Of a stretch of DNA of 64,000 bases, positions 8,230 to 59,657 are shown one piece after another. Numbering within the stretch: position 1 is the first letter of the stretch; every line of letters starts with the position of its first letter. The position numbers were made by a program, and so were the translations under genes. Below the pieces are notes generated by a model. That model had not been told where the DNA came from. It saw only the letters and a program-made list of their open reading frames with translations, and made no database searches. The DNA lies in IMG/VR virus record IMGVR_UViG_2859810971_000007. One strand, given 5' to 3'. This DNA comes from a virus. Taxonomy: Duplodnaviria; Heunggongvirae; Uroviricota; Caudoviricetes.

Positions 8230-8271
8230 TGAGGTGTACTGGCAATAGCGGACACTACCATTTGTTCTTTT

Positions 8272-9090
8272 TTAAGCAGCCATCTGATGATATTTTTCCC
8301 TGAAGGCTGCCGGGGAGATATTCCCCAGACGAGAGTGACGACGCTGACGATTGTAGAAAATCTCAATGTATTCCCGTATTACTGAGATGGCTTCATCCCG
8401 GTTATTAAAACGATAGTGGCTCAGGCTCTCATTTTTCAGCGTTCCCCAGAAGCTTTCCATCGGAGCATTGTCGTAACAGTTACCTTTACGCGACATTGAT
8501 GTTTTCAGACCAAACTGCTCCTGTATGACCCGGTAATCGTATGCGCAGTACTGTGAACCTCGATCAGAGTGGTGGATTAGCCCGGCAGGTGGGCGCTGGC
8601 TCCTGAGCGCCATAAACAGGGCTTTACCTGTCAGCTCTTTTGTCATGCGCTCTCCCATGGCGTAGCCGACAATTTCGCACGTATAAACATCTTTGATGCC
8701 AGCGAGGTACAACCATCCCTCCTGTGTGGCAACATACGTCAGGTCCGCCACCCAGACCTGATTTGGTGCTGTAGGAGCGAACGTCTGGTTCAGCAGATTT
8801 GGCGCAACTGGCAGATTGTGGTTCGGGTTCGTAGTCGCTCTGAACTTGCGTTTCTGCTTACAGCGTAGCCTCAGCTCCTTACGAAGACGTGCCAGTCGGT
8901 CACGACCAACGATGATGCCATTCTCTGCCAGCTCCGTCTGGAGCCGCCGGGTTCCATATGTTTCGCGAGTGCGGATATGTGCCACCTTAATCTCCAGTTT
9001 TAGCCGCTCATCACTTTGTTTTCTGTCTGAGGGTTCATGCTGTACCCAGTTGTAATAACCGCTCCTGGATACACCAAATACCTGACACAT
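8272..9090 (-). CDS. IS600 OrfB transposase (DDE)
   Basis: 272-aa ORF near-identical in all five copies; IS3-family integrase-core motifs. Confidence 0.9.
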   Translation of the reverse strand: MCQVFGVSRSGYYNWVQHEPSDRKQSDERLKLEIKVAHIRTRETYGTRRLQTELAENGIIVGRDRLARLRKELRLRCKQKRKFRATTNPNHNLPVAPNLLNQTFAPTAPNQVWVADLTYVATQEGWLYLAGIKDVYTCEIVGYAMGERMTKELTGKALFMALRSQRPPAGLIHHSDRGSQYCAYDYRVIQEQFGLKTSMSRKGNCYDNAPMESFWGTLKNESLSHYRFNNRDEAISVIREYIEIFYNRQRRHSRLGNISPAAFREKYHQMAA

Positions 9091-9366
9091 CGCTTCAATG
9101 GGAAATTGTTGTCGCCATTGTTCGATTAACGCGTATTTTTCAGCGACTCCTGTGCAAAATACGCTGTTGCTTTTTTTAATATATCGCGCTCAAGGCGAGC
9201 TTCATTTAACGCCTTACGCAGTTGCAGAATTTCAGATTCCAGTTCAGCCACCGTGCGGGAACCAGGAGTACCGAGCCCTTTTCTGGCGGCGGTAACCCAT
9301 TGTCCTAAAGTGTGAACCGCCCCGGGAATCCTGGAGACTAAACTTCCTGAGAAAGAGGTAAACAGG

Positions 9367-9693
9367 ATGACTAAAAATACTCGTTTTTCCCCCGAAGTCC
9401 GTCAACGGGCAGTCCGTATGGTTCTGGAAAGTCAGGGCGAATATGACTCACAATGGGCGACAATTTGTTCCATTGCCCCAAAGATTGGCTGTACGCCGGA
9501 GACTCTGCGTGTCTGGGTTCGCCAGCATGAGCGGGATACCGGGGGCGGTGATGGAGGGCTCACCACCGCTGAACGTCAGCGCCTGAAAGAGCTGGAGCGT
9601 GAAAATCGTGAACTGCGCCGCAGTAACAATATCCTTCGCCAGGCTTCCGCTTATTTTGCGAAGGCGGAGTTCGACCGCCTCTGGAAAAAATGA
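9367..9693 (+). CDS. IS629 OrfA
   Basis: 108 aa [30 protein letters not shown]... HTH plus leucine zipper typical of IS3 OrfA. Confidence 0.8.
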
Positions 9694-10576
9694 TGCCACT
9701 GCTGGATAAGCTGCGTGAGCAGTACGGGGTCGGACCGCTATGCAGCGAACTGCATATTGCCCCGTCAACGTATTACCACTGTCAGCAACAGCGACATCAT
9801 CCGGATAAACGCAGTGCCCGTGCGCAGCGCGATGACTGGCTGAAGAAAGAGATACAGCGCGTATACGATGAAAATCACAAGGTATACGGTGTAAAGTCTG
9901 GCGTCAGTTGTTACGGGAAGGTATCAGAGTGGCCAGATGCACTGTGGCACGTCTCATGGCGGTTATGGGACTTGCCGGTGTTCTCCGGGGTAAAAAGGTC
10001 CGTACGACCATCAGCCGGAAAGCCGTTGCCGCAGGCGACCGCGTAAACCGTCAGTTCGTGGCAGAACGACCTGACCAGCTGTGGGTGGCTGATTTTACTT
10101 ACGTCAGCACATGGCAGGGCTTCGTCTATGTGGCGTTCATCATTGATGTGTTTGCCGGATACATCGTGGGGTGGCGGGTCTCATCGTCCATGGAAACGAC
10201 ATTCGTGCTGGATGCACTGGAGCAGGCGTTATGGGCCCGTCGACCGTCCGGCACGGTCCATCACAGTGATAAAGGTTCTCAGTATGTATCGCTGGCCTAC
10301 ACACAGCGGCTTAAGGAAGCCGGATTACTGGCATCAACAGGAAGTACAGGCGACTCGTATGACAACGCGATGGCGGAGAGCATCAATGGTCTTTACAAAG
10401 CGGAGGTAATACACCGTAAGAGCTGGAAAAACCGTGCAGAAGTGGAACTGGCCACACTAACGTGGGTGGACTGGTATAACAATCGACGATTGCTGGAAAG
10501 GCTGGGCCATACTCCTCCGGCAGAAGCAGAAAAAGCTTATTATGCTTCCATCGGAAACGATGATCTGGCAGCCTGA
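9690..10576 (+). pseudogene. IS629 OrfB transposase, frameshifted
   Basis: Split into ORFs 9690..10046 and 9908..10576 in different frames; the DDE core is in the second. Confidence 0.65.
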
Positions 10577-10800
10577 GTTCACAGATAAAACACTCTCCAG
10601 GAAACCCGGGCGGTTCAGTGCCTTCAGGAAGAGATAATCGGGAAGCGCCTTCACTGATCGAAAGTTGATTTTCAAGAACCGTTCTGACAGCTTCGGCTTT
10701 GAACTCTTTAGAGTAACGTTGGGTTTTTCTGCTCATTATTAGCTCCTTCTGATGCCATTCTATTTCAGGAAGGAGTGTCCGTTAAACTCAGGCTACCTCA

Positions 10801-10881
10801 CTGATCCAACCACTGCAAAAACCAGTAGCCGGCACTGCCGGCGGAGGTGCCGTAGGCAATGCCTGTTGATATTTTTTCCAT
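10801..10881 (-). pseudogene. Holin N-terminal fragment, truncated by IS600
   Basis: Minus-strand [27 protein letters not shown] matches N-terminus of the holin at 47216; cut at IS600 end 10800. Confidence 0.45.
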
Positions 10882-11567
10882 CTGATACATATCCCGCCCC
10901 CCGACAGACCTGTGCTATCGGAAAGAAAAAAGGCCATCAGCAAAACTCTGATGGCCTGAATCACCTTTACCAATATTGTATGAAAAAACACGCACGACTA
11001 ATTGACAATAATTTTCATTTCCATTAAAAAAGATCGCGCAGCATTCTTAATTCATGAGGAACTTTACCCGCCAGCAATCTGAGTAGCGAAAGCTGTTCAT
11101 CCCAATGTTTTTGCTGGCGGGTCCTTTTTTCTACGGTCCTCCTCCCCGGAGGGGCATTTCATTATTTTTCTAATCGTTACTGGTGAGAAGGCGGAAGAAA
11201 AAGCCAGTTCTTCGCCCCTAAATAATAGCATGATTCCAGTCCATGCAAAATCTGATTTCCAGCTCACACATACCGAGCACTGTACAAAAAACCGCCAACC
11301 AAGGCAGTTAAGAGTGTGTTCCCGGGGTTTGCTTAGAATATTTTGTAAGTTGTCCGAAGAGATATTTACAACACCAGAATGATGCATTATCAGTCCCCTG
11401 CCAGAGGTTCACTACGTAACCTGACCGACAATGCACCATTCTGGTGCTGAAAAAAGAGCACTGGAACTGCAACAAAACAACATCACAGAACAGGAGATGG
11501 TAAGGAGTCAGACATTCCCACACAATATTGTGTCAGTGCAAATAACAACCTTCGTCTCAAATCTCGC

Positions 11568-58089: not shown

Positions 58090-58129
58090 CAGCCACATGG
58101 CCCCTGGCGGGGCCATTAAGGATGACCCG

Positions 58130-58328
58130 ATGGCAAAAAATGATGCAGTAATACACGTACATACCCCGTTTGTGCTCACGCTTCCCGACGGTTCTCGGCG
58201 CGAGTTTGTTAAAGGCCGTCATGTTGTGGAGGAAGACGTTGCCACGCACTGGTTCACTCGTGCGCACGCGGAAGTATCCGTTGGCAAAGCCACAGACGCG
58301 CGTAACGAGGTAAAAAATGCCAAAGAAT
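58130..58328 (+). pseudogene. Small head-region protein, 3'-truncated by IS600
   Basis: AAGGA RBS then MAKNDAVIHVHTPFVLTLPDGSRREFVKGRHVV...; reading frame runs into IS600 end at 58329. Confidence 0.4.
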
Positions 58329-58371
58329 TGAGGTGTACTGGCAATAGCGGACACTACCATTTGTTCTTTTT

Positions 58372-59190
58372 TTAAGCAGCCATCTGATGATATTTTTCCC
58401 TGAAGGCTGCCGGGGAGATATTCCCCAGACGAGAGTGACGACGCTGACGATTGTAGAAAATCTCAATGTATTCCCGTATTACTGAGATGGCTTCATCCCG
58501 GTTATTAAAACGATAGTGGCTCAGGCTCTCATTTTTCAGCGTTCCCCAGAAGCTTTCCATCGGAGCGTTGTCGTAACAGTTACCTTTACGCGACATTGAT
58601 GTTTTCAGACCAAACTGCTCCTGTATGACCCGGTAATCGTATGCGCAGTACTGTGAACCTCGATCAGAGTGGTGGATTAGCCCGGCAGGTGGGCGCTGGC
58701 TCCTGAGCGCCATAAACAGGGCTTTACCTGTCAGCTCTTTTGTCATGCGCTCTCCCATGGCGTAGCCGACAATTTCGCACGTATAAACATCTTTGATGCC
58801 AGCGAGGTACAACCATCCCTCCTGTGTGGCAACATACGTCAGGTCCGCCACCCAGACCTGATTTGGTGCTGTAGGAGCGAACGTCTGGTTCAGCAGATTT
58901 GGCGCAACTGGCAGATTGTGGTTCGGGTTCGTAGTCGCTCTGAACTTGCGTTTCTGCTTACAGCGTAGCCTCAGCTCCTTACGAAGACGTGCCAGTCGGT
59001 CACGACCAACGATGATGCCATTCTCTGCCAGCTCCGTCTGGAGCCGCCGGGTTCCATATGTTTCGCGAGTGCGGATATGTGCCACCTTAATCTCCAGTTT
59101 TAGCCGCTCATCACTTTGTTTTCTGTCTGAGGGTTCATGCTGTACCCAGTTGTAATAACCGCTCCTGGATACACCAAATACCTGACACAT
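58372..59190 (-). CDS. IS600 OrfB transposase
   Basis: 272-aa ORF. Confidence 0.9.
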   Translation of the reverse strand: MCQVFGVSRSGYYNWVQHEPSDRKQSDERLKLEIKVAHIRTRETYGTRRLQTELAENGIIVGRDRLARLRKELRLRCKQKRKFRATTNPNHNLPVAPNLLNQTFAPTAPNQVWVADLTYVATQEGWLYLAGIKDVYTCEIVGYAMGERMTKELTGKALFMALRSQRPPAGLIHHSDRGSQYCAYDYRVIQEQFGLKTSMSRKGNCYDNAPMESFWGTLKNESLSHYRFNNRDEAISVIREYIEIFYNRQRRHSRLGNISPAAFREKYHQMAA

Positions 59191-59225
59191 CGCTTCAATG
59201 GGAAATTGTTGTCGCCATTGTTCGA

Positions 59226-59528
59226 TTAACGCGTATTTTTCAGCGACTCCTGTGCAAAATACGCTGTTGCTTTTTTTAATATATCGCGCTCAAGGCGAGC
59301 TTCATTTAACGCCTTACGCAGTTGCAGAATTTCAGATTCCAGTTCAGCCACCGTGCGGGAACCAGGAGTACCGAGCCCTTTTCTGGCGGCGGTAACCCAT
59401 TGTCCTAAAGTGCCTTCAGGAAGGGATAATCGGGAAGCGCCTTCACTGATCGAAAGTTGATTTTCAAGAACCGTTCTGACAGCTTCGGCTTTGAACTCTT
59501 TAGAGTAACGTTGGGTTTTTCTGCTCAT
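59226..59528 (-). CDS. IS600 OrfA
   Basis: 100-aa ORF. Confidence 0.9.
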   Translation of the reverse strand: MSRKTQRYSKEFKAEAVRTVLENQLSISEGASRLSLPEGTLGQWVTAARKGLGTPGSRTVAELESEILQLRKALNEARLERDILKKATAYFAQESLKNTR

Positions 59529-59657
59529 TATTAGCTCCTTCTGATGCCATTCTATTTCAGGAAGGAGTGTCCGTTAAACTCAGGCTATCTCAATAAACCG
59601 TGCTGTGTAACTGCTGTGGATCAAATCTGACCACAACTTTTTTCACTCCGGCATTCA

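Follow-up and report, generated by a model that had tools for sequence, protein, structure and literature searches.

What left four of the five IS600 copies in a 64-kb stretch of DNA without the short target-site duplications (TSDs) that flank simple insertions of this insertion sequence (IS), and what do these copies say about the broken prophages in which they lie? The stretch, here called the window, comprises all 64,000 nucleotides of IMG/VR record IMGVR_UViG_2859810971_000007. An initial annotation of its sequence held that the four copies join unrelated fragments of lambda, Rac and Mu prophages, and that IS600-mediated recombination produced the resulting mosaic. Comparison with related genomes upholds the view that the duplication-free copies are scars of recombination or deletion, as IS600 copies are found to exchange flanks between strains of Shigella flexneri. 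The nature and number of the joined fragments, and the role of IS600 as the agent, require revision.

The five copies were found by self-BLAST and a repeat search of the window, and in all of them the transposase lies on the minus strand, as had been reported. Each contains orfB (272 amino acids) and orfA (100 amino acids), both on the minus strand, for which precomputed Pfam labels on the identical loci L019 and L052 (L numbers denote fetched loci) read HTH_Tnp_1 and rve. The copies are 99.5-99.7% identical to those annotated by NCBI as "IS3-like element IS600 family transposase" in the Escherichia coli strains FDAARGOS_943 and VL40. Pairwise identity among the five is 99.4-99.9%, with 11 variable sites. 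Copies 2-5 are 1264 bp long and copy 1 consists of 1263 bp plus an inserted IS. The termini read TGAGGTGTACTGG... and ...GGCTACCTCA, and form imperfect terminal inverted repeats beginning TGAGGT. The copies, with their left/right flanking 3-mers, and the element nested in copy 1 are as follows.

8230-10800, minus strand: IS600 copy 1, no TSD (GTT/CTG), split by an IS3-family element, 1-bp deletion at IS position 39
9313-10617: IS3-family element nested in copy 1, 1305 bp, TSD GTG, ends TGAACCGCCCCGGG...CCCGGGCGGTTCA
21261-22524, minus strand: IS600 copy 2, no TSD (GTC/CAT)
32706-33969, minus strand: IS600 copy 3, no TSD (GAT/GTC)
41457-42720, minus strand: IS600 copy 4, TSD ACC (ACC/ACC)
58329-59592, minus strand: IS600 copy 5, no TSD (AAT/ATA)

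Copy 1 calls for one correction to the initial annotation, namely the nested 1.3-kb element, which we take to resemble IS629. The same nested insertion occurs in CP049606.1 and other S. flexneri genomes.

The flanking 3-mers of all five copies confirm that copy 4 alone carries a 3-bp duplication. For the duplication-free copies, seven of the eight flanks align up to the IS boundary with uninterrupted sequence, either in a comparator or elsewhere in the window; the right flank of copy 5 is the one lacking an uninterrupted comparator. The missing duplications are therefore real and do not reflect misplaced IS ends. Elsewhere in the fetched loci, simple IS600 insertions are flanked by 3-bp duplications, namely CAG, TTG, AAC, TAA, GTA, TCT and ATG. 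When all 25 combinations of left and right flanks in the window were paired, a long reading frame was restored only by the pair belonging to copy 4. The trinucleotide GTC, common to the left flank of copy 2 and the right flank of copy 3, was dismissed as chance, as these flanks map to different prophages. Single-nucleotide mosaicism among the copies was also considered as a trace of recombination and found uninformative, there being only 11 variable sites, with copy 4 closest to copy 2.

To which chromosome does this DNA belong? The window is 100% identical to NCBI CP026810.1 (GCA_002949455.1) at approximately 2,768,899-2,832,898, over four overlapping loci, and is 99.7-99.9% identical to other genomes that include S. 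flexneri 5 str. 8401 and M90T. For CP026810.1 itself, identity to S. flexneri genomes, strain 8401 among them, is 99.8-99.9%. A search of complete E. coli genomes did not recover the window as such; the best matches were strains resembling enteroinvasive E. coli, which served as comparators. The window represents the gal-bio region of a Shigella flexneri chromosome holding two neighboring lambdoid prophages, which very probably were broken up by deletions and inversions at IS600 copies among other events. These prophages are phi1, which occupies the interval from ybhA to pgl and has ipaHb at its end, and phi2 at attLambda; pgl-ybhC separates them, and a Mu-like remnant lies in dpiA. Beyond the right edge of the window, pagP, cspE and genes on to lipB follow in ascending K-12 order.

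An unrearranged layout is present in the ipaH-carrying "E. coli" FDAARGOS_943. It starts with gal-mod-ybhA and continues with the early half of phi1 (int, recE', rha, a ydaT/ydaV-type early region, Q-like genes, four tRNAs, holin, lysozyme and Rz) and its late half (DedA, terS, terL, portal, capsid, a 16-kb contractile-tail module, tail fiber, DUF4376 and ipaHb). The core genes pgl-ybhD-ybhH-ybhI-ybhJ-ybhC separate phi1 from phi2. The latter, at attLambda, begins with int, xis, genes through N, rexAB, cI, cro, cII, a helix-turn-helix (HTH) gene and a toprim primase, and proceeds through the nin region, Q, holin, lysozyme, Rz, Nu1, A to J, lom, tail fiber, DUF4376 and ipaHa to ybhB-bioA. All blocks of the window map to this layout with 97-99.8% identity.

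1-8229, minus strand: block H2, packaging and head genes of phi2, inverted, 98.6% identity to FDAARGOS_943 phi2 (L005 24895-34426); tail Z, FII, FI, E (major capsid, 1280-2308), D, C, portal B, W, terminase A (6022-7953), Nu1
10801-21260, minus strand: block E, early, regulatory and Q-like region of phi1, inverted, 99.45% identity to FDAARGOS_943 phi1 (L004 12245-22160); first 81 bp of holin (10801-10881), four tRNAs (11568-11877), then DUF1133/1364/1367, hokD, DUF977, ydaV, ydaT, cro-like, cI-like, to DUF1391
22525-32705, plus strand: block I, DUF4376' (22526-23143), ipaHb (23323-25149, minus), then core genes pgl (26025-27026), ybhD', 'ybhJ (28457-30208) and ybhC (30349-31632, minus), attL, int'
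31767-32705, minus strand: lambda-type int', following attL, first ~130 nt missing
33970-41456, plus strand: replication/nin region of phi2 (33970-39969 is HTH'-toprim-nin of phi2), with Pfam labels from identical locus L019; HTH', toprim primase, IS911, ninB, ninE, HTH/RelE-type pair, ASH/Rha regulators, LvrA-like N-terminal part
42721-58328, plus strand: replication-Q-lysis genes plus block T; LvrA-like C-terminal part, DnaC-like, DnaB (44101-45492), NinH, Q, four tRNAs (46613-46923), holin (47225-47440), lysozyme, Rz
~48656-58328, within the preceding span: block T, late region of phi1, 97.8-99.6% identity to FDAARGOS_943 phi1; DedA, terS, terL split by IS2 B, portal (53374-54840), major capsid (57148-58089), DUF4054'
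59593-61411, minus strand: Mu-like left-end remnant in dpiA; MuA' (59658-60182, minus), ner-like gene, c-repressor-like gene (60565-61074, plus), Mu left terminus ending at 61411
61412-64000, plus strand: core chromosome; 'dpiA (61451-61753), dcuC (61794-63179, minus), IS1 from 63248

The labels in block H2 rest on matches to lambda and phage 21, which are approximately 90% for the phi2 head genes, and on Pfam labels of the identical locus L029. Nu1 in this block is without its first ~67 codons. No exact-protein record was found for the terminase A protein, and the major capsid protein was used for the look-up instead. The replication-Q-lysis module spans 39979-49106 and is 99.4% identical to a VL40 prophage (for 42720-49106, the prophage at yecE).

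A lambda-type prophage at attLambda is confirmed by the lambda-type integrase gene beside ybhC (int' lies 135 bp from it) together with the Nu1-A-W-B-C-D-E head genes. The same site is empty (ybhC-ybhB-bioA) in locus L024. As initially proposed, the head genes (1-8229) and int (31767-32705) belong to this one prophage and are mutually inverted. The picture of a lambda/Rac/Mu mosaic does not survive. The "Rac-like" part is the early region of the ipaHb-carrying phi1, whose FDAARGOS_943 orthologue has an integrase of its own and is inserted between ybhA and pgl, not at ttcA with intR/xisR; the resemblance to Rac concerns gene types only (ydaT, ydaV and DUF977). Moreover, approximately 8 kb of the supposed mosaic is ordinary core chromosome, namely 26.0-31.7 kb (pgl-ybhC) and 61.4-63.2 kb (dpiA-dcuC).

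With the blocks placed, each junction can be read. Copy 4 is a recent simple insertion: its removal restores a frame of 321 codons (158 + 163), and the empty site is present in four relatives, E. coli VL40 and three S. flexneri strains (loci L006, L016, L018 and L021).

Copy 1 has its left flank in Nu1 and its right flank 81 bp into holin, with both genes on the minus strand and in the usual lambdoid order. Relative to FDAARGOS_943 phi2, ~3.0 kb is missing at this point, and relative to an E. coli prophage the loss is 5.8 kb. Intact relatives show Nu1 and holin in this order and orientation too, and copy 1 is therefore the scar of an internal deletion, one that took out the lysis genes and cos along with most of holin and the beginning of Nu1. 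Both junctions of this copy also occur in CP049606.1 (L030). Copy 3 presents a similar case. Its left flank lies 130 nt into int and its right flank in an HTH gene remnant just upstream of the toprim primase. These flanks are collinear in FDAARGOS_943 phi2, where 11,858 bp not present in the window, from xis to cII and part of the HTH gene, stand between them. As int and HTH-primase keep the order and orientation of intact relatives, copy 3 is likewise the scar of an internal deletion, by which phi2 lost its whole early-left and immunity region. Each half of the copy 3 junction occurs in other S. flexneri genomes with a different partner.

Copy 2 joins the DUF1391 (left) edge of block E to a truncated tail-fiber/DUF4376 gene upstream of ipaHb. 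Its right flank (DUF4376') is identical in all ten fetched S. flexneri loci with ipaHb. On the left side, a recE' segment adjoins the copy in nine of these ten, and beyond it come an inverted IS600, ydaE and rha; the left flank seen here is specific to this genome, in which those 3650 bp (L007 13890-17539) are missing. Both flanks derive from phi1 and are inverted relative to each other, which identifies copy 2 as the end point of an inversion, later trimmed by an IS-adjacent deletion of 3.65 kb. At copy 5, a head-tail connector gene of phi1 meets a truncated MuA, which we take to lie ~140 kb away from phi1 on the K-12 map. S. flexneri 5 str. 8401 (CP000266.1), M90T (CM001474.1) and four other assemblies share both junctions of this copy exactly, and the join is therefore old. 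In FDAARGOS_943, the left flank of copy 5 (L004 1878) and the right flank of copy 2 (L003 15001) bracket 16.35 kb of tail genes, so that these two flanks are the two edges of the missing tail module of phi1.

The junction genes named initially were thus essentially right (Nu1/holin, early region/tail fiber, lambda-type int/toprim primase, and head-gene region/MuA fragment). The claim that they are unrelated does not stand, as the flanks of copies 1 and 3 are neighbors in intact relatives and both flanks of copy 2 come from phi1. Most of the junctions are old and common to S. flexneri strains rather than events of this strain.

Do IS600 copies indeed trade flanks? For each IS600 in all of the loci fetched, the left and the right flank were extracted, with the window-left end of the element designated the G-end and the window-right end the A-end. 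In CP049606.1 (L053), a single IS600 has the left flank of copy 3 and the right flank of copy 4 (int'|IS600|LvrA-C), and window positions 33970-42720 are missing. This arrangement is the product of a deletion between the same-orientation copies 3 and 4, and it can be derived only from the layout of the window. A second exchange involves copy 3 and an IS600 insertion in holin. Five S. flexneri genomes pair the HTH' flank of copy 3 with holin1N...GGATCAG, and four others pair its int' flank with CAGGTCAGTCC...(holin1C), that is, CAG-holin1C. The two holin halves overlap by CAG, the TSD, and match the holin of FDAARGOS_943 phi1; the window has int'|IS|HTH' instead. In the majority S. flexneri layout, the two flanks of copy 3 are thus exchanged with the two halves of holin::IS600. 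Such a reciprocal exchange carries the signature of an inversion between inverted copies, which the majority lineage would have undergone between copy 3 and holin::IS600. Coordinates in CP097831.1 give the predicted order: inverted block I, copy 2, phi1 early region, IS600, HTH' with the replication genes, and phi2 heads. Other junctions vary as well. The Nu1 junction of copy 1 has three different A-end partners across strains (Rz', a phi2-type holin designated holin2N and the phi1-type holin1N), and the left flank of copy 2 differs between strains. The pairing of reciprocal IS600 junctions, recommended in the initial annotation as a check, thus works for copy 3 across strains and fails within the window.

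This variation also bears on a different account, wherein the prophages were already mosaic at integration and IS600 merely inserted and then lost its duplications. In two E. coli prophages (L001 and L002), lambda-type heads do naturally occur together with an early region of the ydaT/ydaV type, in the order of window 1-21260. However, the near-identical early region of FDAARGOS_943 phi1 (99.45%) is followed by a different head module, and that module is 97.8-99.6% identical to window 52634-58328. The same blocks also stand in different orders among S. flexneri strains, and loss of all three duplicated bases by point mutation at four copies is implausible given their 99.4-99.9% identity. We consider a native mosaic very unlikely.

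Several observations weigh against rearrangement through IS600 copies as the explanation for the four junctions. No duplication-free junction has its reciprocal partner inside the window, and the stepwise history proposed below is consequently a reconstruction from other strains. The two reciprocal copy 3/holin junctions are seen in different genomes and not both in one. The int'|HTH' pairing at copy 3 and the left flank of copy 2 occur in this one assembly only. Finally, the same holin nucleotide adjoins the A-end (transposase-upstream) in copy 1 and the opposite G-end in the majority layout.

The third of these points raises the prospect that the odd pairings are assembly artifacts, with reads misjoined or collapsed over identical 1.26-kb IS600 copies. 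Yet several complete assemblies, independent of one another, also have the copy 1 and copy 5 junctions, the right-hand junction of copy 2 and each half of the copy 3 junction, and the copy 3 × copy 4 product in CP049606.1 is derivable from no layout other than that of the window. The DNA missing at copy 2, moreover, holds no same-orientation IS600 that could have been collapsed. An assembly error is therefore barely credible.

The fourth point is more consequential. Recombination between two IS copies never switches the IS end to which a flank is attached, and homologous recombination alone thus cannot explain copy 1. The position, which follows GGATCAG in the class II holin gene (window 10801-10881 and 47225-47305; loci L049-L051, L054 and L031), is joined to opposite ends of IS600 in different S. 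flexneri lineages, and in the phi2 holin of a third strain it is joined as in the lineage of the window. To account for these junctions, IS600 would have to have inserted more than once at one and the same site, in either orientation and with a subsequent deletion, or else a deletion would have to have been directed by an IS end. Against repeated insertion, none of 5426 complete E. coli genomes has an IS600 at that holin position in either orientation. One apparent full-length E. coli match to the holin site was discarded because it consisted of two separate pieces over 374 bp. An end-directed deletion could proceed by transposase or by microhomology, as ACCTCA, present at both IS termini, forms a 6-bp direct repeat at the two end points.

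These observations bear on how much can be ascribed to the model implied initially, in which all four duplication-free copies result purely from RecA-type recombination of pre-existing, duplication-bearing IS600 elements. Events of exactly this kind are represented by the copy 3 × copy 4 product of CP049606.1 and by the reciprocal copy 3/holin::IS600 exchange. In contrast, the holin flank of copy 1 sits on the wrong IS end, the new left end point of copy 2 is free of IS600 in every relative, and the sole IS600 inside the 3.65 kb deleted there is inverted. Two further joins, described below, also count against this model: the phi2-to-phi1 join in Rz is without any IS, and a duplication-free IS1 also marks a deletion. 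Pure recombination is, in our judgment, unlikely as an explanation for all four copies. A bolder proposal is that IS600 reshapes DNA beyond passive homology, such that part of Shigella prophage decay is active and directed by IS ends; we advance this only tentatively and think it rather improbable.

IS600-linked recombination is real, and it is not the sole agent, as two joins make clear. The first is the transition from phi2 replication/lysis genes to phi1 head genes, which is free of IS elements and falls within Rz, a gene homologous in the two prophages. The sequence is VL40-like (99.3-99.5% identity) up to the start of Rz and phi1-like (99.8%) from there on, a pattern that fits recombination between their paralogous lysis modules. 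A crossover between phi1 and phi2 in the tRNA-holin segment was considered and rejected, as the sequence types flanking copy 1 do not fit and the switch is in Rz. The second is an IS1 that replaces ybhD'-ybhH-ybhI-'ybhJ, a segment present in nearly all other S. flexneri-type loci examined; among those genomes, the 3.7-kb deletion is seen in this one only. The elements other than IS600 and its nested companion are as follows.

19663-20993: IS2 A, inside block E, TSD CTCAG
27628-28395: IS1, no TSD, sits on the 3.7-kb deletion
36773-38022: IS911, TSD GAG or GGAG, single copy in the comparator
51304-52633: IS2 B, splits terL, TSD GCAAT
From 63248: IS1, 9-bp TSD AAATATGCC

IS2 A, IS2 B and IS911 keep their duplications, as originally stated, and IS911 and IS2 also serve as junctions in other strains. 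The duplication-free IS1 had gone unmentioned in the initial annotation.

A history consistent with these junctions would begin with IS600 insertions at several sites, after which the copies would supply movable stretches of homology and might also be acted on by transposase. Recombination between same-orientation copies would delete the DNA between them, and recombination between inverted copies would flip it; the flanks of a hybrid IS600 come from different original insertions, and therefore show no matching 3-bp duplication. IS600 would first have entered phi1 and phi2. The phi1 body would then have been inverted between an IS600 in recE and an IS600 in the tail fiber gene, followed by loss of the phi1 tail module. 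Inversion of the dpiA-to-ybhA block via an IS600 in MuA may next have generated the copy 5 junction, common to all strains examined, and a deletion of the phi2 early region would have created copy 3. In the present lineage, an inversion between the two Rz modules would have brought the phi1 early region beside the phi2 heads and the phi2 replication/lysis genes beside the phi1 heads. The lysis-cos-Nu1 deletion at copy 1 would have come last but for the deletion adjacent to copy 2, the IS1 deletion and the copy 4 insertion. The map, the junctions and the exchange of flanks between strains are observations. From these we infer the order of events and, under the model, whether IS-copy recombination or transposase action would account for each deletion. 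The exact order of steps reproduces every adjacency of the window and its extensions, but it is not unique, and the chance that it is correct in full is somewhat less than even.

Insertion sites in this region recur at short distances. Two IS2 sites in the phi1 terL gene, one in S. flexneri and one in FDAARGOS_943 (L004 7861-9190), are 220 bp apart, each with its own 5-bp duplication. Independent IS600 sites lie 30 and 90 bp apart in recE', and in two other strains IS600 has inserted upstream of the site of copy 4, at distances of 201 and 325 bp. These near-coincident sites suggest a regional insertion preference.

The prophages also hold two tRNA cassettes (11568-11877, minus strand; 46613-46923, plus strand), in which the same four tRNAs lie between a Q-like gene and holin in both prophages. 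The tRNAs are one with a CAU anticodon, Arg-UCU, Thr-UGU and Gly-UCC. The cassettes are 98.5% identical and inverted in the window, such that a further inversion could take place between them. The genes ipaHb (window 22526-25149) and ipaHa (L005 6586-9152) are each directly downstream of a tail-fiber/DUF4376 gene at a prophage tail end, a placement at the tail ends of phi1 and phi2 that is consistent with phage-borne cargo. The toprim primase gene (34181-36864) is frameshifted into open reading frames (ORFs) of 505 and ~380-405 amino acids, and other strains have a 619-amino-acid version. Faint Hint (Hom_end_hint) and weak LAGLIDADG matches in these ORFs suggest a putative intein with a homing endonuclease inside the primase. 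IS911 lies just past the 3′ end of the primase ORFs.

The Mu-like remnant retains a recognizable order of terminus, c repressor, ner and transposase A, with the terminus adjoining 'dpiA; we take the terminal sequence at 61411 to be the Mu left end. A Mu DNA-binding domain (Pfam HTH_Tnp_Mu_1) is found on both ORFs of the remnant. In strain 8401, the counterpart includes a 544-amino-acid MuA' with DDE_2 and Mu-transpos_C domains and a ner-like HTH_35 gene. Relative to that strain, MuA' in the window has an internal 1035-bp deletion with a 7-bp overlap at the break (59700-59706), 114 bp from copy 5. The ORF beside copy 5 was also considered as the Mu repressor and rejected, as comparison with 8401 identifies it as an N-terminal fragment of MuA and the plus-strand ORF as the repressor.

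How do these findings compare with known systems? Homologous recombination between IS copies yields deletions and inversions and leaves a hybrid IS without a matching target duplication. Both products are seen here, the deletion in CP049606.1 relative to the window and the inversion between copy 3 and holin::IS600. The holin junction of copy 1, with its flank on the other IS end, departs from that textbook scheme. IS-adjacent deletions are known to arise by intramolecular transposition, by local reinsertion followed by recombination, or through the IS-excision enhancer that acts on IS3-family elements. The left side of copy 2 and the right side of copy 1 resemble such cases in that one junction is fixed and the other flank varies between strains. 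Unlike in those systems, the process is a candidate route for IS600 here, with no intermediate strain among the fetched loci.

IS-mediated deletion and inversion in Shigella are already well established, and the present region is one instance in a public genome. What it offers is a junction-by-junction account of how the ipaHb- and ipaHa-carrying prophages at ybhA-pgl and attLambda were dismantled in S. flexneri, in place of the idea of unrelated lambda, Rac and Mu pieces. Gene order in this region differs between close strains, which is relevant to assembly validation, synteny-based typing and prophage annotation. Beyond such bookkeeping, its importance is small.

Comparison of S. flexneri 8401 with strain 301 revealed IS-mediated inversions, one of them probably caused by IS600 (PMC1550401), and a Shigella-wide survey found high rates of IS-driven rearrangement with hot spots, as well as ipaH genes amid prophage fragments and IS elements (PMC8072062). 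Our region shares with these studies the organism, IS600 as a probable mediator, break points located at IS elements, and the fragmentation of prophages and ipaH islands. Those surveys are whole-genome in scope, whereas here the single junctions of one 64-kb region are paired across strains. The present analysis thus differs from the published surveys in detail and not in kind.

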